This document shows, in pieces, positions 24,621 to 58,711 of a stretch of 64,000 nt of DNA (positions are counted from its first letter, which is position 1; every line of letters begins with the position of its first letter). The DNA comes from Candidatus Nomurabacteria bacterium (lineage in GTDB: Bacteria > Patescibacteriota > Minisyncoccia > Phycocordibacterales > UBA9973): contig JAIOPO010000004.1 of NCBI GenBank assembly GCA_021413905.1, forward strand, positions 1,597-65,596, given 5' to 3'. The notes beneath the pieces are model-generated. The model ran no database searches. It was not told the origin of the DNA and was given only the letters and a program-made list of their open reading frames with translations. A program made the translations under genes and the position numbers.

Positions 24621-25259
24621 ATGAAAAATCAAAAAAGTGATCAAAATTTACTTGAGCAAGAAATCTCACAAGAACTTGCCAATGCAGAAAAAATTGCAAA
24701 ACAAGTAATAGCTAAAAAAAACAGAGCTAATTCTTTAAAAGAAGAATTGGACAAAGCAAAAAAAATAAAAGTATCTAGCGTCGTTCATAAATATCAAAAC
24801 CATGCGACTACTGTTACATGGAAAGATATAGAGGAATTCAATATTAAAACCGATAAACTTCTCCTTGATATAATAGAAGAAGTTTTTCAAAAAAACAAAA
24901 CAGTTCACTCTCCAAAACAGACTTATTTTCATTCGAAAATAGAAGAGTACTCAACAGACTTTGAGGTAATCAAAAACCTTAAAATAAATACTTTTCTGAG
25001 TATTGAGGAAATAATAATACTCTGTTATGATCTTATTTTAACAGAAAGATCCGGTAGTGGGCCATTGTATAACTCGGATTTTAAAAAATCAAAAATCCTT
25101 AATCTTGGCTATATAAATCACCCAGATTTAGGACTTGCATCAATCAGACTGGAAAGAAAAAGACTAAACCATTCTGAAGGCGAAGCAAGAGAGTATCACT
25201 TGCATTTTTACAGTGAAACAAGGCGATATTACGCGGGAAATGAATTTCTCGTTAAATAA
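24621..25259 (+). CDS. Hypothetical protein (isolated transcription unit)
   Basis: ORF bracketed by two strong terminators; no recognisable family. Confidence 0.35.
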   Translation: MKNQKSDQNLLEQEISQELANAEKIAKQVIAKKNRANSLKEELDKAKKIKVSSVVHKYQNHATTVTWKDIEEFNIKTDKLLLDIIEEVFQKNKTVHSPKQTYFHSKIEEYSTDFEVIKNLKINTFLSIEEIIILCYDLILTERSGSGPLYNSDFKKSKILNLGYINHPDLGLASIRLERKRLNHSEGEAREYHLHFYSETRRYYAGNEFLVK

Positions 25260-49982: not shown

Positions 49983-51761
49983 TTACATAATATCAACAAT
50001 CCTAAGCCTCAGCTCTTCACGACCGCGGAAACGAGATAAATCAAAAGTCGCCAGTAAGTTTACAGACAATCCTTCGGCTAAAGGAATTTTAAAGGAATCT
50101 AAGCCAGAGAAAAATGAAATCGCTGTGGCTTTTTTGTTATTATCGGAAAAAATAATTTCTAGATGTTCTTGTGAATTATTTTTTCCGAATTTTTTCAATT
50201 TTTCTATTTTCACATTTTCAAAAAGAAAAATAGGCTTTGGATTTTCACAACCAAATGGCGCCATTTTTTCTATTTCTTTCCAATTTTTCATATTTACGTC
50301 AGTGAGAGATAATTTTAAATCAAAAAGTGTGGGAGATTGCTTTTCTGTAGCCGAGGACTGTCTGAGCGTAGCGAGTTCCGCAGGCAAAGAAAAAATATCA
50401 CCTGCACTTTTTGCACGAATATTTACAAAAGAACTAGACAAAGCTTCCTCCAAAAAATGCACTTTTTCTGTATGCACTGTAAATCCTCCCGCGCCTTCGT
50501 GCCCGCCAAATTCCAAGAAATACTCACGTGTTTCTGTCATCAACTCAACAACAGACACTGAGCCATCTGACCGACAAGAACCTTTTATAAAATCATTCTC
50601 ATCTTTACCCCACACAAACACGGGCTTTTTATGTTCATCACAAATCTTACCCGCAACAAGACCGAGCACACCCACTTTCCATTCCGGATGCCCTATAACT
50701 ATCACTTCGTTCATTTCACGTTTCTCGAATTTTTTATTCACATCTTTCATAATACCAGCAACCATTTTTTTTCTTTCGTCATTTATTTTCGTCAAATGAT
50801 TTGCCAAAATTCCTGCCTCCGTTTCATCTTGCGTTGCCAACAATTCAAAAGCTCGGCGCGGATCATCCATACGCGATGCAGCATTAAGTCGAGGCGTCAC
50901 CATAAAACCAATATCGTCTTCAGAAATATATTTCTGATCTATGCTCATCTTTGCCAAAAGTTTTTGCAAACCCGGACGCGGAGATTTCCTAAAAACTTTC
51001 AAACCAAAATATGCAATCACTCTATTTTCTCCCAACAACGGCACCATGTCAGAAAGTGTCGCTAGCCCCGCCATATCAAGCAACCATTTCTCCCAAGAGA
51101 GAGGCGCGGGTATTGTGTTTTCTGTAGCCGAGGACTGTCTGAGCGTAGCGAGTTCCGCAGGCAAAGGAAACACAATACCCGCGCCTCCATACTTCTTCAA
51201 AAAACCTTGCACCAATTTAAAAACAACCCCAGACCCACATAACATTTTTTCCGAATATTCGTCTACTTTCGGATTCAAAATAGCATACGCTCGCGGAAGC
51301 TCTGCGTGCGGAATATGGTGATCTGTAATTATAACATCAATGCCGTACACAATAGCTTGAGCTACTTCTGCCACAGCTGTGATGCCTAAATCAATCGTGA
51401 TTAAAAGCTTCACACCGTCTGCGTCCATTTTTTTTACCATTTCCAAATTCAAACCATATCCTTCAGAATTTCTTTGCGGAATATATACTTCAAAATTTTT
51501 ATAATTTAATTTATTAAAAAAGTCATTCAATATCACCGCGCCTGGAATGCCGTCGCAATCATAATCCGCATATACCAATATTTTTTCTCCAGCTTCCATC
51601 GCTTCAAAAATCCGCACGCAAGCTTTTTCCATATCGCGCATTAAAAAAGGATCGTGCATATCGCGTTCATAATTTGGATTTAGGAAAATCTCTTTTTGCT
51701 CGGCTGTTGTAATGCCTCGTTTTTCCAATAATTCATTTAATAGGCTACTTGGTTGCATAAA
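49983..51761 (-). CDS. recJ: Single-stranded-DNA-specific exonuclease RecJ (DHH/DHHA1), with two in-frame copies of a ~73-bp repeat element
   Basis: DHH motifs (YADYDCDG, DHH) and DHHA1. Probable start is MQPSSLL (ORF track start 51908). Confidence 0.85.
   Translation of the reverse strand, partial: FMQPSSLLNELLEKRGITTAEQKEIFLNPNYERDMHDPFLMRDMEKACVRIFEAMEAGEKILVYADYDCDGIPGAVILNDFFNKLNYKNFEVYIPQRNSEGYGLNLEMVKKMDADGVKLLITIDLGITAVAEVAQAIVYGIDVIITDHHIPHAELPRAYAILNPKVDEYSEKMLCGSGVVFKLVQGFLKKYGGAGIVFPLPAELATLRQSSATENTIPAPLSWEKWLLDMAGLATLSDMVPLLGENRVIAYFGLKVFRKSPRPGLQKLLAKMSIDQKYISEDDIGFMVTPRLNAASRMDDPRRAFELLATQDETEAGILANHLTKINDERKKMVAGIMKDVNKKFEKREMNEVIVIGHPEWKVGVLGLVAGKICDEHKKPVFVWGKDENDFIKGSCRSDGSVSVVELMTETREYFLEFGGHEGAGGFTVHTEKVHFLEEALSSSFVNIRAKSAGDIFSLPAELATLRQSSATEKQSPTLFDLKLSLTDVNMKNWKEIEKMAPFGCENPKPIFLFENVKIEKLKKFGKNNSQEHLEIIFSDNNKKATAISFFSGLDSFKIPLAEGLSVNLLATFDLSRFRGREELRLRIVDIM
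50331..50402. repeat. GC-rich repeat element copy A (49-bp identical core with imperfect terminal inverted repeats), in-frame inside recJ
   Basis: Core ttttctgtagccgaggactgtctgagcgtagcgagttccgcaggcaaag is identical to the copy at 51118-51166; encodes ...LPAELATLRQSSATE... Confidence 0.85.
51108..51180. repeat. GC-rich repeat element copy B with perfect 13-bp terminal inverted repeats (GGGTATTGTGTTT...AAACACAATACCC), in-frame inside recJ
   Basis: Read from sequence; 73 bp spans 24 codons plus 1 nt in the recJ frame. Confidence 0.85.
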
Positions 51762-51794
51762 GACAATTTTAACACAGTTTGATATAATATTGAT

Positions 51795-52205
51795 ATGGAA
51801 GAGTGTATATTTTGTAAAATAATAAAAGGGCAAATCCCTAGCACGAAAATTTATGAGGATGATAAAACCCTCGCCTTTTTGGATATTGCGCCAGTAAACA
51901 TCGGGCACGCTTTAATAATACCTAAAGAACATTATGCAAATATATATGAAACTCCGGAAGACACTATGTCAGACATAATAAAAGTAGCTAAAAAAATATC
52001 TCTCGCTGTGAAAGAAGCAGTAAAAGCAGAAGGAGTAAATATTACAATGAACAATAACCACGCTGCCGGGCAAGTAATATTCCATTCACACATTCACGTC
52101 ATCCCCCGTTTCTCAAACGATGGCTTTGAACTCTGGCACGGTAAAAGAGCATACGAAGATGACGAAATGAAATCTGTTGCTGAAAATATTACTTCAAAGC
52201 TTTAA
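51795..52205 (+). CDS. HIT-family (histidine triad) nucleotide hydrolase
   Basis: HSHIHVIP histidine-triad motif; N-terminal CxxC-like IFCKI. Confidence 0.9.
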   Translation: MEECIFCKIIKGQIPSTKIYEDDKTLAFLDIAPVNIGHALIIPKEHYANIYETPEDTMSDIIKVAKKISLAVKEAVKAEGVNITMNNNHAAGQVIFHSHIHVIPRFSNDGFELWHGKRAYEDDEMKSVAENITSKL

Positions 52206-53232
52206 TTAAATTTTTATCATTAAAAAATTTAGAAAGTTTATACCCCCTACAATGAGACAAAATTCCTAAATAAGAAAACTTTGACTCTTTGAATAAATTT
52301 TGTTTCACTTTTCGTAAAATTCTTTTTTTAGTGGAAGTTCGCAAAACTTTATAATGTGTAAGAACTACATAACCAAGAAAATCCACTCCTTGCGATACTT
52401 TTCTAATTTCAACTTTTTTGGGATGTAATTTTAATTTAAGTTTCTCTTCTAAAAATTCGGAAATTTTTGGTAAAAGTAATTCAAGAAAATATTTATCTTT
52501 TGAAACGCACACGAAATCGTCACAATATCTTGCATAATATTTTACTTTTAAAACATGTTTCATAAACTGATCAAAAACATTCATATAAACATTTGCAAAA
52601 AGTTGACTTGTCACATTACCAAGAGGAAGACCTTTGCCTTCTAATTTTTCAAAACTTTTTATAATATTTTCTAAAAGCCATTTGGTTTCCAAGCACTCAA
52701 TTTTTTCAAAAAGAATTTTCTTTAAAATTTCGTGATCTATTGAATCAAAAAATTTAGAAATATCACACTTTAATACCCAAGCATTATTTTTATAATTTTT
52801 TGTTTCTTTTCTTAAAAAACTTTCAAGACGCTCAACTCCCGCGTGAGTGCCTTTATTAAATCGGCAAGCATAAGAATCATAAATAAAAGATGGATCATAA
52901 ATTTTATAAAGTTGGCGAAAAACAGCTTGATGCACTACCCTGTCTCGAACCTGTGCTTTGTGTATATGTCTTATTTTGGGGTCGCAAACATAAAAAGGCA
53001 CATATGGCTCATTTATATATGTTTTTCTTCGTAGAGAAAAATGAATATCCAAGATATTTTTTTCTAAATTAAATTCAAATTTCTGTATATCAGTTTTTTT
53101 ATTTTTTCCACGACGAAACTCTCGCCACGCAGACAAAAGATTGGAAGTGGAAATAATATGATAGAATAAATCACTATGATGACCCCCCCACTTACTTCCA
53201 ATAAAATTATCGAGCTCCCTGTTATTCTCCAT
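52189..53232 (-). CDS. Diversity-generating retroelement (DGR) reverse transcriptase
   Basis: RT motifs including YCDDF (motif C) and the DGR-specific motif 4 LPLGNVTSQLFANVYMN (I/LGxxxSQ instead of QGxxxSP). About 347 aa with no maturase domain. Confidence 0.85.
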   Translation of the reverse strand: MENNRELDNFIGSKWGGHHSDLFYHIISTSNLLSAWREFRRGKNKKTDIQKFEFNLEKNILDIHFSLRRKTYINEPYVPFYVCDPKIRHIHKAQVRDRVVHQAVFRQLYKIYDPSFIYDSYACRFNKGTHAGVERLESFLRKETKNYKNNAWVLKCDISKFFDSIDHEILKKILFEKIECLETKWLLENIIKSFEKLEGKGLPLGNVTSQLFANVYMNVFDQFMKHVLKVKYYARYCDDFVCVSKDKYFLELLLPKISEFLEEKLKLKLHPKKVEIRKVSQGVDFLGYVVLTHYKVLRTSTKKRILRKVKQNLFKESKFSYLGILSHCRGYKLSKFFNDKNLIKALK

Positions 53233-53562
53233 GTAAAGAGATTATATAAAATAATATATCAATTGGGAATAAAAATGCCGAAACAAAATAAATTGGGCAT
53301 ACATAAAGTGTTGGAAGAAAAAACATTACTAATACTTACTACATTAATTGATTCAGCACTTAGAAGTAGGCAAGACAAAATACAAACTCTAAATCAAGCT
53401 CGTAGAGATATTGAAGTCTTGAAACATCTTATTCGCCTAGAATATGAATTAAATATAATACAAGAGAAATCTTATATAAATTTATCAGCGATGCTTGAAA
53501 ATATCTCTATGATGACAACCGGTTGGATAAAGTCTCTCGGAACACAAAAGCCCCTCTATTGA
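53176..53562 (+). CDS. Avd-like four-helix-bundle protein (23S rRNA IVS protein family), DGR accessory variability determinant candidate
   Basis: ...IYQLGIKMPKQNKLGI...LNQARRDIEVLKHLIRLEYELNIIQEKSY...WIKSLG parallels IVS/Avd proteins. Start uncertain (53176 overlaps the RT start on the other strand; alternative ATG at 53275). Confidence 0.6.
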   Translation: MMTPPLTSNKIIELPVILHVKRLYKIIYQLGIKMPKQNKLGIHKVLEEKTLLILTTLIDSALRSRQDKIQTLNQARRDIEVLKHLIRLEYELNIIQEKSYINLSAMLENISMMTTGWIKSLGTQKPLY

Positions 53563-53583
53563 GGAGCTTTATGAGAAACTTCT

Positions 53584-53693
53584 GACGGAGACCGTTGTCG
53601 GAATTACGGTTGTCGCGATTGTCGTTGCTGATGTTGAACTGACCATTGTCGTTGCGGTTCATGTTCATCGCGTTACCGTCTGAATCGAGGGCT
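53584..53693 (-). repeat. DGR template repeat (TR), 110 bp
   Basis: Aligns base-for-base with 53959-54068. Of 20 mismatches, 19 fall where the TR coding (minus) strand has A; the TR coding frame is AAC/AAT-rich. Confidence 0.85.
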
Positions 53694-53884
53694 CTTTCTG
53701 TGAGTGTCCACCAATATCACCACATATCTTTTTCAAAATATGTTGAATTTTCCGGCACTAAAGCCGTCTCTGTTTGGAATCTAAATTCCCTAGACTCTCG
53801 CAGGCAGTTTCTATTGTTTGGCAAACTGTCATCACATTTTTTAAACGGATCAGCTTAACAGCCGAGTTAATTATAACAAAATTG

Positions 53885-53926
53885 TAAAAAAAAGTTCCCC
53901 TTGAATTAAAAAATCCAAAGGGAACA
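53885..53926 (-). terminator. Intrinsic terminator of the DGR target gene
   Basis: Minus strand reads GUUCCCUUUG(G)...CAAGGGGAAC, a ~10-bp stem, followed by U8. Confidence 0.7.
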
Positions 53927-53944
53927 AGATAATAGTCAAGAGGT

Positions 53945-54691
53945 TTAGAAACCTACTTGACGGAGACCGTGGTCGGAAAGACGGCCGCCGCGATGGCCGC
54001 TGCCGATGTAGAACTGACCATAGTCGCGGCGGATCATGAACATCGCGTGCCCGCCTGAATCGAGGGCTGCAAAACGTGTGAGTCCTTTGACATCATACAT
54101 TTTACTAGTCTCAGTCCGATGACGAAAAGCGGCGATGATGCCTTCTTTCGGCACCATAAACTTGGTGCCGGCTTCGATACCGTCATCATAGCTTTTGCCT
54201 AGCATGTCGGGCTCGTCTCCGCCGACGTGGCACATGGGATAGTCGCCTTCGGGGCGCGCTTGCTGTTCGCGAATTGCATCGGTGATGCTGTCGTAATATT
54301 TCCATACAGCATCCTTTCCGAACTTTTTCGCATAGGCTTCAAGTGCCTGATCCTCGGTGATGTCGGAAAAAATAACCTCAAGGCGAGACATTTTTTCAGT
54401 TTTCACCGGCAAAGAAAGTTTCGTCCAGTCAACCTGACGGTTGAAGAATTTTTTGTAAAATATTTCTATCTTACGTTTTTCTTCAGTCCAGTGGTCAACT
54501 TTTACACCGAGAACTTCTTCGCAGAATTTCTCGGTCAGTTCTTCAAGCTCTTTTTTGTCACTCAAGACAAAGTGTTGCGCTTGGTCAAAACTGAAACCTC
54601 CATCGCCCAGCACACGAATAATGGTGCCGGCAATTTTAAAACCAATTGCAGACAACTGCCCCGTGGTTGCGGGTTTTTGCTGATTTGTCAT
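53945..54691 (-). CDS. DGR target protein with C-terminal variable region (C-type-lectin/FGE-like fold suspected); GC-rich relative to neighbours
   Basis: 3' 110 bp (53959-54068) is the variable repeat. C-terminus ...IGSGHRGGRLSDHGLRQVGF resembles the CLec-fold VR ends (…GFRxV) of known DGR targets. Confidence 0.75.
   Translation of the reverse strand: MTNQQKPATTGQLSAIGFKIAGTIIRVLGDGGFSFDQAQHFVLSDKKELEELTEKFCEEVLGVKVDHWTEEKRKIEIFYKKFFNRQVDWTKLSLPVKTEKMSRLEVIFSDITEDQALEAYAKKFGKDAVWKYYDSITDAIREQQARPEGDYPMCHVGGDEPDMLGKSYDDGIEAGTKFMVPKEGIIAAFRHRTETSKMYDVKGLTRFAALDSGGHAMFMIRRDYGQFYIGSGHRGGRLSDHGLRQVGF
53959..54068 (-). repeat. DGR variable repeat (VR) at the 3' end of the target gene
   Basis: See the TR alignment; adenine-specific substitutions. 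Confidence 0.85.
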
Positions 54692-54857
54692 AAGACTCCT
54701 CCTTTAAAAAGAACATTAATTTGTTGAGCCAAAAACCACAAAGGTTATCAAGGGTGCTCATACCCTTAATATCTAAAGTATACACCTTTTAGAGTAAAAA
54801 GTCAAGAGCTAAAAATAGCTGTAAAATAAAGCTTTTCCCTATGTCAGACATATGTAT

Positions 54858-55925
54858 TTATTTCAAAGCTTTAATTCCAGGCAAGGTGCCATTAGCGAGA
54901 AAGTCCAGTGTCGCCCCTCCGCCAGTGGAAACAAAAGAAAATTTGTCTTCCATTTTATTTTCAGAAATTAAAGATACCGTGTCTCCTCCACCAATAATGC
55001 TTTCAGCTTTAGAATTGGCAACCAACTTCAAAACACTTTTTGTGGCTCCACCATTCAATACTTCGTATTTCCCCAAAGGTCCGTTCCAGAGAATCATTTT
55101 AGCTTTCCTTATTATTAGTGCGAGATTTTTTATTGATTCAGACCCAACATCTAAAATGATTTCATCTTTTTGTACTTCAGTTACTTTTTTATTTATAAAA
55201 GTCCCATCAGTTTTTTTTACCACTACATCAGTAGGTAAAATAAGTTTTTTATTATTTATAAATTTATTAATCCCAAAGTCACTTTCATCAACAAGAGACT
55301 TACCCACTTCATAACCTTTCGCTTTCAAAAAGTCATTTACTAGAGCGCCCCCTATGAAAATATTATCAGCGAGATTTAAATACTTTTTAATCAAAGGCAT
55401 TTTAGTGGAAAACTTCGCTCCGCCTAGAATAAACAAAAATGGATGCTTTGGATTTTTCATAACCTTGGAAAGATTTTTCACTTCTTCTTCAAGCTGAAAG
55501 CCCGCATAGCTGGGCAAATATTTTGGAACGCCGACAACAGATGCATGCGCTCTATGAGAAACAGAAAATGCGTCATTCACATAAATGTCTGCGAGACTTG
55601 CCAAATGTTTCGCAAAATCTTTATCATTCTTTTCTTCACCGGGGAATTTACGAACATTTTCAAAAAATTCTATTTTGTTTTTAGGAATTTTAGAAAGAGT
55701 AAAAAAATTTTTAATCACTGGCTCAAGTGAAGCTGTACCGTCTTTACCTAAATGAGTTAGCAAAATTACTTGCGCACCTTTTTTTAATAAATAATTTATA
55801 GTTGGCAAAGATTTGCGAATACGAAAATCATCTTCAACCTTGCCATTTTTAATAGGCACATTGAAATCCACCCTCACGAGAACTCTTTTACCTTTTATGT
55901 TTTTTAATTTTTTGATTGATTGCAT
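54858..55925 (-). CDS. pgk: Phosphoglycerate kinase
   Basis: RVDFNVP N-terminal motif and the conserved hinge and C-terminal nucleotide-binding region. Confidence 0.9.
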   Translation of the reverse strand: MQSIKKLKNIKGKRVLVRVDFNVPIKNGKVEDDFRIRKSLPTINYLLKKGAQVILLTHLGKDGTASLEPVIKNFFTLSKIPKNKIEFFENVRKFPGEEKNDKDFAKHLASLADIYVNDAFSVSHRAHASVVGVPKYLPSYAGFQLEEEVKNLSKVMKNPKHPFLFILGGAKFSTKMPLIKKYLNLADNIFIGGALVNDFLKAKGYEVGKSLVDESDFGINKFINNKKLILPTDVVVKKTDGTFINKKVTEVQKDEIILDVGSESIKNLALIIRKAKMILWNGPLGKYEVLNGGATKSVLKLVANSKAESIIGGGDTVSLISENKMEDKFSFVSTGGGATLDFLANGTLPGIKALK

Positions 55926-56857: not shown

Positions 56858-58711
56858 TTACTTAACACACATTTTCATAGGTCCAGCACTTGTTATATTA
56901 TATGAAGTGCCAGAGCTACCAGTAGTTAAACCCATTGTAGCAACACCAACACCAAGATCTTGTACTGTAAAACCAGTAGGACAAGAACACCCAGCAGTAA
57001 AAGTGTTTGATTTTAAACAAGTTGAATTATCAAAACCAACAATATAAGAACCTCCAAAACCATAAGTAGCTCCCCGAATAGTTGAAGTAGATCCAGCAAT
57101 AACAACATTCCCAGAATTTGTTAAAACTCCAAAAGAGTCTATACCGCCAGTAAGATAAGATTTACCATTTACAGTTAAAGCATGACCAGAAACTGGTGTT
57201 GTGCCTATAGCAACATTTCCACTTCCATAAGTAATATCATTTCCTGACACAGTCCAAGATGGTGATGGTAATGTTTGCCAACTTGCTAAACCATTAGCAT
57301 CAGAAGTTAAAACTTTTCCAGCTCCAGGTGAACCACCAGAAATTTTTATTTTTCCATTTACATCTAGATTTGTTGCAGGAGTTGAAGTACCAATACCTAC
57401 ATATTTATTATTTGTATTATAAATACTTGTATTACCAGTCTCTGGATCTGTTGCAGAAGCCCAAGGTGAAGTTACAGTTCCACCACCAGTAGCTGGTGTC
57501 TGCCAACTTGCCAAACCATTAGCATCAGAAGTCAAAACTTTTCCAGCTCCAGGTGAACCACCAGCAACAGTAAGTTGCCCAGGAATTTTAAAATTAGCCG
57601 GACCATAGACATTGCCTGTCGCTGTCGGAGTATTACCAGTGCCTAATATAAAAGTTTTTTCATTTGGATACCAAGATATATTTCCATGCGCAACGCCAGA
57701 TCCTCCAAAAAATATTCCTTGACTAGCTGTACCAGCACCACCCGCTGTACCATTCAAATAAAAACCACCATTTGAATTTAAAGTATTCGCTACACCTAAA
57801 TCACCGTTTACAGACAAAGTATTTGTCGGTGTATTTGTACCAATTCCAACTTTTCCTGCTGTGTAAAAAATATCATTTGTGGAACCGATGCCTGTTCCAG
57901 CAGACCAATAAGAACTAGCAGTGGAAGCAGAACCTATATCAGTCCAAGCTGTTCCATTACAAAACTGCATTTTCATTGGCATCAGTAAATTATTATATCT
58001 TTGAGTACCAGCTAATGCTGTAGTACAAGGAGCATTTGTATTACCAATTTTTACAGTACCAGAAACATCAGCATTTCCATTTATTTTTAAACCGGTAGCA
58101 GTAATCAAACCATCTGAAGTAAGTCCCGCATCAAAAATCGCAGAAGTCATACTACGAAGACCTCCTAAAACAATATTTGCTGACTGTAAAAAAGTAGGAC
58201 CTGCAACAGTCAATCCATCAGAAATCTGAACATCACCACGAACATCAAGACGAGAGGTTGGAGAAGTTGTACCAATACCAACACTTCCATTATCTTGGAA
58301 AGTCATTATTGAGCCAGTTGTACCAGTATTAAAAGCACCGTTTACTGTTTCTTTTAATCTGCCTATATGAAATTTCCATCCTGTTTTATCACCAAAACGC
58401 AAATAACCAGCATTTGGTGAAGAATCACTTTTATTCAACATAAAAGAACCCAGAGATAGATTGTCAGAAGTAACAGTACCAGACGAAGTAATCCCTTGAT
58501 CAAAAATAGAAGGACCAAAAGATCTAAAACCATTTACCAAAACAGATCCTGGTTTATATTGAGTAGAAGTACTTACATTCAAAGGAGCTGAGACATTAGC
58601 ATTTGGAGGTGTTCCTGTTGGATTTTGCCATACAGCCAAAGCTTGAACAGAAAAAGCAATAGCCAAAATAACAAATGCTGATTTAAATATTGTTTTGTTT
58701 ATATAATTCAT
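56858..58711 (-). CDS. Secreted Gly/Thr/Ser/Asn-rich repeat protein with tail-fibre-like repeats
   Basis: Signal peptide; three VGIGT(T/N/S)xPxxxLxVxG repeats and a duplicated GGSPGAGKVLTSDANGLASWQT segment (~65-bp near-identical DNA repeats at ~57290 and ~57500). Confidence 0.5.
   Translation of the reverse strand: MNYINKTIFKSAFVILAIAFSVQALAVWQNPTGTPPNANVSAPLNVSTSTQYKPGSVLVNGFRSFGPSIFDQGITSSGTVTSDNLSLGSFMLNKSDSSPNAGYLRFGDKTGWKFHIGRLKETVNGAFNTGTTGSIMTFQDNGSVGIGTTSPTSRLDVRGDVQISDGLTVAGPTFLQSANIVLGGLRSMTSAIFDAGLTSDGLITATGLKINGNADVSGTVKIGNTNAPCTTALAGTQRYNNLLMPMKMQFCNGTAWTDIGSASTASSYWSAGTGIGSTNDIFYTAGKVGIGTNTPTNTLSVNGDLGVANTLNSNGGFYLNGTAGGAGTASQGIFFGGSGVAHGNISWYPNEKTFILGTGNTPTATGNVYGPANFKIPGQLTVAGGSPGAGKVLTSDANGLASWQTPATGGGTVTSPWASATDPETGNTSIYNTNNKYVGIGTSTPATNLDVNGKIKISGGSPGAGKVLTSDANGLASWQTLPSPSWTVSGNDITYGSGNVAIGTTPVSGHALTVNGKSYLTGGIDSFGVLTNSGNVVIAGSTSTIRGATYGFGGSYIVGFDNSTCLKSNTFTAGCSCPTGFTVQDLGVGVATMGLTTGSSGTSYNITSAGPMKMCVK

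Follow-up and report, generated by a model that had tools for sequence, protein, structure and literature searches.

A chromosomal diversity-generating retroelement of Candidatus Nomurabacteria with its template repeat in a predicted structured RNA

The 64-kb stretch of Candidatus Nomurabacteria DNA analysed here (the window) very probably carries a complete chromosomal diversity-generating retroelement (DGR) of the CPR/Patescibacteria type, with architecture B3; its order is target gene, template repeat (TR), inverted avd and reverse transcriptase (RT). An intact RT of the DGR clade, an Avd-like protein, an adenine-biased pair of template and variable repeats (TR/VR) and a C-terminal VR domain predicted to be C-type-lectin-like are present together. 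A complete DGR had been claimed in a sequence-only reading of this DNA, an interpretation that is supported by the location of all four parts: RT, Avd-like ORF, TR and a target with its VR. Architecture B3 denotes TR-(avd)-RT with avd on the reverse strand and accounts for 90% of the DGRs of CPR bacteria (Wu et al., 2018; PMC5758913); here, in a CPR host, the TR occupies 53693-53583 (minus strand), avd 53176-53562 (plus) and the RT 53232-52189 (minus). One DGR clade (clade 2) is restricted to Patescibacteria, and its targets are without recognisable domains (Roux et al., 2021; PMC8144416). As the layout is the published B3, the element is a further case of an already known class. DGRs of this type are already known as common in ultra-small (CPR) bacteria, and with the class catalogued in thousands, one more changes little alone. 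The new detail relative to the known CPR DGRs is the placement of the TR within a conserved RNA that is structured as judged by comparative analysis. Public annotation offers only the names "reverse transcriptase/maturase family protein" and "hypothetical protein", and hence can be corrected.

Inserted between pgk and a HIT gene, the cassette has a copy of a 19-nt direct repeat on either side. The minus strand of the left copy (52189-52207) codes for the last residues of the RT (IKALK*) and its plus strand for the end of the HIT gene; the right copy (54858-54876), identical at 18 of 19 positions, encodes the end of pgk (IKALK*), and duplicated pgk sequence served to rebuild the C-terminal tail of the RT. 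With close relatives, pgk and the HIT gene are adjacent or nearly so, and the cassette is absent between them. The insertion scar, together with these empty sites, indicates that whole cassettes move between chromosomal sites in these reduced genomes. Twelve related loci of Patescibacteria have the same order of target, TR, inverted avd and RT, and a thirteenth is without avd and RT; the order target, TR, (avd), RT was found in 12 loci reached via the target and in four further loci reached via the RT. No synteny of the window's flanking genes was found in the related DGR loci.

Reverse transcriptase and accessory protein

The RT (52189-53232, minus strand; 347 aa) matches RVT_1 (1.9e-25) and PHROG 1423 (5.9e-107). 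Its residues 202-218 are LPLGNVTSQLFANVYMN, in which motif 4 reads LGNVTSQ and fits the DGR pattern [ILV]GxxxSQ, and the catalytic YxDD is YCDD at residues 236-239. Both motifs had been noted in the earlier reading of the 347-aa protein, and they were confirmed by alignment with the RT of BPP-1 (8ub7_A), the best match in the PDB (E 1.1e-48), where the IGxxxSQ and YxDD residues align. By sequence, the protein is closest to the Bordetella phage DGR enzyme, and its best match places it in the DGR clade. Membership of another RT class (group II intron, retron, DRT or Abi), with the TR/VR pair arising as an unrelated partial gene duplication, might be suggested by the NCBI name 'reverse transcriptase/maturase family protein', by the JGI designation of homologues as 'retron-type', and by a group II intron model as the top NCBIfam match. 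The score with this model, 145.8 bits, is less than half of its 300-bit cut-off, however, and the next PDB class, that of the group II and retron-type RTs (E 1.5e-19), falls 30 orders of magnitude below the DGR RT. Moreover, neither an intron RNA nor a maturase or endonuclease domain was found, Rfam gave no group II or retron match, and adenine-specific mismatches recur in 13 independent loci. The probability left to another RT class is vanishingly small; it is effectively refuted by the tests run.

Between the TR and the RT, on the opposite strand, lies avd (accessory variability determinant; 53176-53562, plus strand). The ORF matches Pfam bAvd (4.2e-9; 37.3 bits against a curated cut-off of 40), NCBIfam DivGenRetAVD (4.1e-12; 46.3 bits against 80) and the PHROG 'Avd protein of DGR' (3.5e-10). 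Its assignment to the Avd family in the earlier reading is thus shared by three profile libraries, with scores under the curated cut-offs for the first two, and its product is probably Avd. The four-helix bundle expected of the bAvd / 23S rRNA IVS family found no confirmation: a profile of 13 Avd homologues gave no significant match in the PDB and reached no solved Avd, and the single-sequence AF2 model was poor (pTM 0.41). Conservation of residues 4-33 among homologues places the start upstream of the ATG at 53275. The genes avd and RT overlap head to head, with 57 nt common to their 5' ends. The position of avd is kept in 16 loci.

Target gene and the TR/VR pair

The target gene (53945-54691, minus strand) encodes 248 aa, with a helical region at the N-terminus and, at the C-terminus, a predicted, divergent C-type-lectin-like domain in which the VR lies. 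A strong Shine-Dalgarno sequence, AGGAGG, lies 6 nt before its ATG at 54691, and a promoter-like site further upstream (54777-54805, minus strand; TTGACT-17-TATACT) is proposed by consensus match only. An intrinsic terminator (53886-53925, minus strand), formed of a 14-bp hairpin and then T8, follows the VR by approximately 33 nt; a hairpin with a T-run is found at the equivalent site in related loci, where the stem sequences differ, and this hairpin may correspond to the one that follows the VR in other DGRs. The target protein has no evident signal peptide or transmembrane segment. Its C-terminus models as a divergent C-type-lectin fold; a Foldseek search of the model against the PDB and BFVD returned no significant match, and the family gave noise only, both when its members were compared one by one with Pfam and when its profile was compared with PDB sequences. 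The family, of approximately 250 aa, has 75 homologues found and matches no Pfam family. At 90% identity the target is the sole member of its cluster; its nearest homologue shares 72% identity with it. Alignment of the homologues (A1) showed hypervariability at exactly those codons with A in the TR, and conservation elsewhere.

The TR (53583-53693, minus strand; 111 nt, 36 of them A) and the VR (53958-54068, minus strand), which encodes residues 208-245 of the target, align without gaps at an offset of 375, with 20 mismatches over 111 nt. In 19 of these the TR has adenine, as read on the minus (coding) strand (8 A>G, 6 A>T, 5 A>C; hypergeometric P ~1e-10), and all 19 are at codon positions 1 or 2 in the frame of the ORF. 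The earlier count of 20 mismatches, 19 of them template adenines replaced by G, C or T, was reproduced by this alignment, and the mismatches lie almost only at adenine as opposed to being spread evenly over the four bases. That a noncoding copy is collinear with the end of the gene also held, with a length of 111 nt in place of the 110 nt given; its description as a copy of the last 110 bp of the ORF did not, as the VR ends 10 nt before the stop codon. The richness in Asn codons (AAC/AAT) read from the template frame amounts to 11 AAY codons; in the target frame the TR has 22 variable codons, none of which is able to mutate to a stop. When pooled over 13 loci, the window included, 213 of 219 mismatches are at TR adenines, corresponding to 213 mismatches over 461 TR-A sites against 6 over 970 other sites. 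At their 3' ends the two repeats have an identical, adenine-poor stretch of 11 nt, GGTCTCCGTCA, and the sequences diverge right after it; a long GC-rich IMH as in BPP-1 is absent from the TR/VR ends. No second VR was found anywhere in the 64-kb window. A small hairpin right after the VR (GTCAAG..CTTGAC) is not kept in other loci.

That this DGR diversified the VR in the past and is now silent or disabled, so that the VR is a frozen variant, might be suggested by the one mismatch at a non-adenine position of the TR, a silent T>G (GGT>GGG). Decay is also evident in the family: one locus (L011) has kept target and leader and lost TR, avd and RT, while two others (L009 and L010), both from a single metagenome-assembled genome, have kept target and TR RNA with no avd or RT within >5 kb. 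The rebuilt C-terminal tail of the RT can be counted on the same side. Against this, all ORFs of the cassette are intact, the catalytic residues and IGxxxSQ are present, every AAY codon of the TR is kept and the RNA helices described below are intact, and the non-A differences are just 1 of 75 positions, no more than in sister loci. A silent element is hence considered unlikely, and a complete DGR is the preferred interpretation.

The RNA containing the TR

The TR appears to lie within an RNA of approximately 325 nt that has a promoter-like box and a bidirectional terminator. The putative promoter is an extended -10 box, TGTTATAAT (53870-53878, minus strand), directly after the target terminator; all 13 loci have TATAAT or TATACT here, 8-10 nt ahead of helix P1. 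A structured 5' domain of approximately 170 nt (53694-53867, minus strand) was predicted by RNAalifold and covariation, with helices P1 (53863-53846 with 53835-53820), P3 (12 bp; 53803-53792 with 53709-53698), P3a (53790-53788 with 53778-53776) and P4 (53743-53735 with 53730-53722). A long-range helix of 7 bp, P2, would join AGAAACU of the leader (53812-53806) to AGUUUCU 3' of the TR (53580-53574). The helices bracket the TR: P3 stops 4 nt short of it, and P2 begins 3 nt past it. With RNAalifold and pair counts, 97.4% of cells were paired, compensatory changes were present in 29 of 45 pairs and none of 500 shuffles was as good; the structure survives the addition of four distant DGRs. Covariation in P2 is scant, since this helix hardly varies: one locus has a compensatory change (L020) and one a break (L015).

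A covariance model, R1, built of the leader only and not of the whole 329-position RNA, scored 158.7 bits at the leader of the window against at most 23 bits in 100 control loci. These controls were drawn from a metagenome scan with AGAAAYTGCCTGN{25,45}AAACA, which returned 120 loci, all of them chance and with no nhmmer RNA matches; 100 were scanned with the covariance model, none matching, and served as negative controls. No match to the 5' domain was found in Rfam. A scan of viral contigs with GTTTGCCN{5,12}GAAACTGCCTG gave six chance matches without RNA, RT, Avd or target similarity, and thus no evidence for phage-borne DGRs of this type.

The stretch upstream of the TR could be thought of as a 3'-UTR or regulatory element of the target, or as a small protein-coding gene, as it is positioned directly after the target gene, is retained following partial loss of the cassette (L011, L016 and L010), and is overlapped by a plus-strand ORF of 70 aa. 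Yet an intrinsic terminator and the conserved -10 box lie between it and the target gene, it accompanies RT and avd even in DGRs with non-homologous targets, and P2 and P3 come within 3-4 nt of the TR on its two sides. The compensatory helix changes and length-variable loops are the pattern of an RNA rather than of a coding sequence. Such roles are accordingly judged quite improbable, and the stretch is treated here as part of the DGR RNA.

At the other end, a stem-loop of 7 bp with an AAUA loop and flanking A- and U-tracts (53541-53567, both directions) overlaps the avd stop codon, and covarying hairpins of -16 to -26 kcal/mol are found at this position in 13 of 13 loci. The stem-loop is interpreted as a bidirectional intrinsic terminator serving both the TR RNA and avd, and it may also be a counterpart of the Avd-binding stem-loop of BPP-1 (10.1101/2023.10.23.563531). 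A pairing between the U-tract CUUUUGUGU and ACAGAAAG, a short way 5' of the TR, was rejected, as it showed no covariation and competes with the well-supported P3; the flanked hairpin is better read as the terminator. A primer strand like that of BPP-1 was sought in antisense-avd, where CCGGUUGUC can pair with GACAACGG of the TR in the window; this pairing is not preserved in the other loci. Codons 111-120 of avd have no excess of synonymous conservation, and such a primer strand was rejected; antisense-avd beyond the end of the TR RNA showed neither extra synonymous-site constraint nor covarying pairing with the TR.

Proposed mechanism and comparison with known systems

We infer the promoter, 3' end, priming site and stop of the TR RNA from sequence, and by analogy with BPP-1 the following series of events can be proposed. 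The TR would be transcribed as its own RNA of approximately 325 nt, from the extended -10 promoter after the target terminator to the bidirectional terminator over the avd stop. The covarying 5' domain and the 3' stem-loop would then recruit the RT-Avd complex, with P2 bringing the TR's 3' edge to the active site. Synthesis of cDNA would begin in cis, with misincorporation opposite adenines, and would stop at the 12-bp P3, which adjoins the TR on its 5' side. Finally, the cDNA would replace the VR via the adenine-poor ends common to both repeats, potentially diversifying the ligand-binding face of a soluble protein of 248 aa into as many as ~1e19 variants. That the TR in this clade of Patescibacteria DGRs is the core of a self-contained RNA with a large 5' domain, in which P2 sets the start of the cDNA and P3 its stop, and which constitutes a rearranged equivalent of the BPP-1 3' spacer and a family absent from Rfam, is a proposal for which we see the balance as even.

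If the TR RNA is a separate unit, modules of target and TR RNA could be served in trans by RT-Avd encoded elsewhere, and the presence of two such modules (L009 and L010) in one metagenome-assembled genome hints at this trans action. The CPR-type cassette would present a compact, sharply bounded DGR RNA, composed of promoter, 5' domain, TR and terminator, with covarying helices at the edges of the mutagenised segment, and with it a testable model of how mutagenic cDNA synthesis is begun and ended in the bacterial lineage richest in DGRs. The covariance model could find TR RNAs, orphans included, without a TR/VR pair.

Compared with the prototype BPP-1 DGR (mtd-avd-TR-brt), the element has a homologous RT (E 1e-48) with the same catalytic and IGxxxSQ residues, and its probable Avd would match the accessory protein of BPP-1. 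Adenine-specific mutagenesis, AAY codons, changes at codon positions 1-2 and an identical adenine-poor 3' end of TR and VR are likewise common to the two, as is, on the model of the target, a VR at the C-terminus of a C-type-lectin-type fold. No sequence similarity to the target was detectable among the FGE-type and DGR-type C-type-lectin folds of SUMF2 (1y4j), TvpA (2y3c), Mtd (1yu0) and TaqVP (5vf4), and its N-terminal helical region is without a match. In BPP-1, all genes are on one strand with avd upstream of the TR, whereas avd of the window is inverted and lies between TR and RT. The BPP-1 element also has a 14-bp GC-rich IMH that is lacking here, and it resides in a phage and diversifies a tail-fibre tip, while the element of the window is in a cell chromosome and its target is a small soluble protein.

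With the BPP-1 DGR RNA, cryo-EM revealed that almost all of the RNA bound by protein (primer strand, thumb ring and RT-binding stem-loop) is in a 140-nt spacer 3' of the TR (Handa et al., preprint; 10.1101/2023.10.23.563531). Similarities to it include a stem-loop shortly after the 3' end of the TR, where BPP-1 has its Avd-binding stem-loop (here 53567-53550), a duplex of upstream and downstream strands that loops the TR out beside the initiation site (here P2), and a helix at the 5' edge of the TR that could stop the polymerase (here P3). In place of the 3' spacer of ~140 nt, however, only ~40 nt separate the TR from the terminator, and the large conserved domain of P1, P3, P3a and P4 is 5' of the TR. 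The upstream strand of P2 is ~110 nt from the TR and thus outside the 40-nt upstream window surveyed in that study (10.1101/2023.10.23.563531), where an RNA of this kind would be undetectable.

The closest likeness is to the DGRs of CPR bacteria (B3, PMC5758913; clade 2, PMC8144416), which have the same TR-(avd)-RT order with avd reversed, a Patescibacterium as host and a chromosomal location. Their target, too, is single and placed upstream, bears its VR at the C-terminus and is without recognisable Pfam or membrane domains, and from these DGRs the cassette of the window differs in no essential respect.

Repeats, reverse transcriptase and Avd

The two repeat copies of the diversity-generating retroelement (DGR) align without gaps over 111 nt (53583-53693 with 53958-54068), at an offset of 375 nt. 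The minus strand is the coding strand of the 248-aa target ORF (53945-54691(-)); the upstream copy, the variable repeat (VR), is intragenic and the downstream copy, the template repeat (TR), is non-coding. Of their 20 mismatches, 19 were located at an A of the TR, where the gene copy carries G (8), T (6) or C (5); with 36 A in the 111 nt of the TR, the hypergeometric P is ~1e-10. The sole mismatch at another base, T>G, is silent, and all 19 TR-A changes occupy codon positions 1 or 2 of the target ORF. Translated in the target frame, the TR reads ALDSDGNAMNMNRNDNGQFNISNDNRDNRNSDNGLR and contains 11 AAY codons and 22 mutable codons, and no stop codon can arise from any of them; computed from the TR, ~1e19 peptides are potentially available. 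The sequence-only reading had described this repeat, with 20 mismatches of which 19 are at template adenines, almost to the base. The position and collinearity it proposed were retained; its length of 110 bp was corrected to 111 nt, and the VR, which it had placed at the very end of the ORF, stops 10 nt short of the stop codon. Further VR-like copies were not found in the 64-kb window.

The reverse transcriptase (RT) ORF (52189-53232(-)) matched RVT_1 (1.9e-25), and its best match among all PDB sequences was 8ub7_A, the DGR RT of Bordetella phage (E 1.1e-48 over residues 16-316), followed by group II intron and retron-type RTs near 1e-19. The catalytic aspartates, Y-x-DD and the motif-4 block are kept in the alignment with the phage enzyme (LPLGNVTSQLFANVY in the query, IPIGSLTSQLFANVY in the phage RT), bearing out the proposal of a DGR-type RT. 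Membership of the NCBIfam group II family was also considered; the RT reached 146 bits, short of the 300-bit cut-off, and hence it lies outside that family. Public annotation does not record a DGR: the RT is entered as a 'reverse transcriptase/maturase family protein' and the target as a 'hypothetical protein', and JGI calls the RT homologues 'retron-type'. The proposed Avd-like ORF (avd, 53176-53562(+)) was matched in three profile libraries (Pfam bAvd, 4.2e-9; NCBIfam DivGenRetAVD, 4.1e-12; PHROG "Avd protein of DGR", 3.5e-10), with the Pfam and NCBIfam scores falling under both curated cut-offs. It overlaps RT head-to-head by 57 nt (53176-53232). Both N-termini are kept in related loci, and the overlap is considered real because that of avd is both conserved in homologues and covered by the Avd profiles. 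Synonymous variation is lowered within the overlap, and the promoter-like sites of avd and RT each lie inside the coding region of the other gene.

Related cassettes, insertion and decay

An identical copy of the target is recorded as a hypothetical protein on an 86-kb contig of a Candidatus Nomurabacteria assembly. Seventy-five target homologues were found, and all those with a source name belong to Patescibacteria. When the homologues are aligned, conservation is high and is lost precisely at the codons with A in the TR. The order target, TR, opposite-strand avd and RT was observed at 12 of the 22 genome loci reached via the target, and a thirteenth locus, L009, has target and TR with merely a remnant of avd. 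Pooled over 13 loci (the window and 12 target-found loci, comprising 11 complete cassettes and L009), mismatches numbered 213 at 461 TR-A sites compared to 6 at 970 other sites. RT homologues at 56-58% identity led to four further loci with the layout of the window, whose targets are of similar size and have undetectable or only marginal homology to the window target. The RT, the Avd profiles, the concentration of mismatches at TR-A and the recurring locus order together support, at the level of sequence, the earlier interpretation as a complete DGR. Its layout is that of architecture B3, TR-(avd)-RT, which accounted for 90% of CPR DGRs in the study of Wu et al. (PMC5758913) and was nearly absent elsewhere; Roux et al. 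described one DGR clade restricted to Patescibacteria, with targets lacking recognisable domains (PMC8144416). The DGR of the window is typical of this known CPR/Patescibacteria group, and ordinary for its host lineage.

The neighbours of the cassette are the housekeeping genes recJ, a HIT gene, pgk and tpi. In the two closest relatives (L143 and L144; pgk 77-78% identical), tpi, pgk, HIT and recJ are present without the cassette and with no more than one small ORF between pgk and HIT, and related cassettes have a different genomic context in every genome. Comparison of these loci indicates that the DGR cassette is an insertion, because its nearest relatives lack it between pgk and HIT and because its context is never shared. 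The limits of the 2.67-kb cassette coincide exactly with the two copies of a 19-nt direct repeat, which are 18/19 identical (52189-52207 and 54858-54876). The right copy forms the end of pgk; the left encodes the last RT residues, IKALK*, and, on the opposite strand, the final part of the HIT gene. At its C-terminus the RT carries, in IKALK*, a copy of that of pgk. The G+C content is 50-54% in the 3' half of the target versus 24-32% in RT. A near-palindromic 14-nt sequence, CTATGTCAGACATA, is repeated exactly, at 51964-51977 in the HIT gene and at 54839-54852, 6 nt away from the stop codon of pgk; this repeat is out of register with the 19-nt repeat and may reflect chance or be related to insertion.

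Decay of these cassettes is frequent. L011 (5962-7020) has only a target and the full leader, the structured 5' domain of the TR RNA, its TR being cut after ~15 nt, and L016 (6001-6950) keeps the leader in part. Target, leader and TR are present in L009 (6001-7200) and L010 (4206-5320), both from assembly DATKGV01; neither avd nor RT was found within >5 kb of these modules, and the TR of L010 differs in VR class from the adjoining target. These four loci represent either modules served in trans by RT-Avd or stages of decay.

Elsewhere in the window, a GC-rich palindromic element of ~90 nt is found twice in the recJ-like ORF (49983-51908(-)), at 50321-50413 and 51101-51187, with 34-37-nt arms, a 19-nt spacer and an identical 39-nt core; none would be expected by chance. 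Both copies are in frame, each contributing the peptide LPAELATLRQSSATE, and the product has 641 aa compared to 580-591 aa in relatives; these insertions are reminiscent of the in-frame Rickettsia palindromic elements. The only Rfam gathering-level match in the window is a DUF805b RNA (RF02914; 24564-24598(+), 41.5 bits), just upstream of ORF 24621-25259. ORF 56858-58711(-) encodes a Gly/Thr/Ser-rich protein of 617 aa with two copies of the motif GGSPGAGKVLTSDANGLASWQT, which is probably a surface or fibre protein of repetitive type; its syntenic neighbour in L143 matches Pfam Gly_rich_2.

Structured RNA around the template repeat

What merits follow-up in this DGR is the structured RNA that surrounds the TR. 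The TR is separated from the stop codon of the target by 250 nt, which are more than spacer: a terminator of the target gene (53925-53886(-); 14-bp hairpin and T8) is immediately followed by a promoter-like box, TGTTATAAT (53878-53870(-)), whose core TATAAT or TATACT is kept in 13/13 loci, and the next ~170 nt are highly conserved. The TR RNA (53541-53867(-), ~325 nt) is a conserved unit in which the TR is embedded, with a covarying 5' domain, the long-range helix P2 and a terminator-like 3' stem-loop; besides the window, it was recognized in L001, L003-L005, L007-L012, L015-L018, L020 and L145-L148. Applied to 13 loci aligned by plain MAFFT, RNAalifold identified helices P1, P3, P3a and P4, in which compensatory changes are numerous, together with P2, in which AGAAACU (53812-53806) pairs with AGUUUCU (53580-53574) and closes the TR into a loop. 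The TR edges are bracketed by the end of P3, 4 nt before, and the start of P2, 3 nt after. With 45 pairs tested, 97.4% of cells were paired and 29 pairs had double changes; none of 500 shuffles matched the observed pairing values, and slid controls were 39-53% paired. Addition of four distant DGRs gave 93.2% pairing, with double changes in 32 of the 45 pairs. R1, a covariance model of the leader alone built from 17 loci, scored 94-174 bits on these, 66-165 bits on three unseen loci and <=23 bits on 597 kb of unrelated control loci; Rfam returned no match for the TR RNA. Downstream of P2, a stem-loop (53567-53550; -16 to -26 kcal/mol) that covaries in every locus lies between an A-tract and a U-tract, overlapping the avd stop codon, and is read from these features as a putative bidirectional terminator. 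The RNA probably ends there, since avd codons beyond the stem-loop have no extra synonymous constraint.

In the proposed mechanism, P2 would position the start of cDNA synthesis, P3 would block its end and the leader would recruit RT-Avd. In the cryo-EM work on the RNA of phage BPP-1 (10.1101/2023.10.23.563531), an Avd-binding stem-loop lies just 3' of the TR, a primer strand pairs with the TR in its 3' portion, an upstream/downstream duplex serves as a stop and RT-binding elements are found farther 3'. On the upstream side of the TR, the survey in the same study took in just 40 nt, and the 5' domain described here would therefore have been missed. The window RNA resembles that of BPP-1 in also having a stem-loop 3' of the TR and a duplex of upstream with downstream sequence, but differs in that most of its conserved structure lies on the 5' side of the TR.
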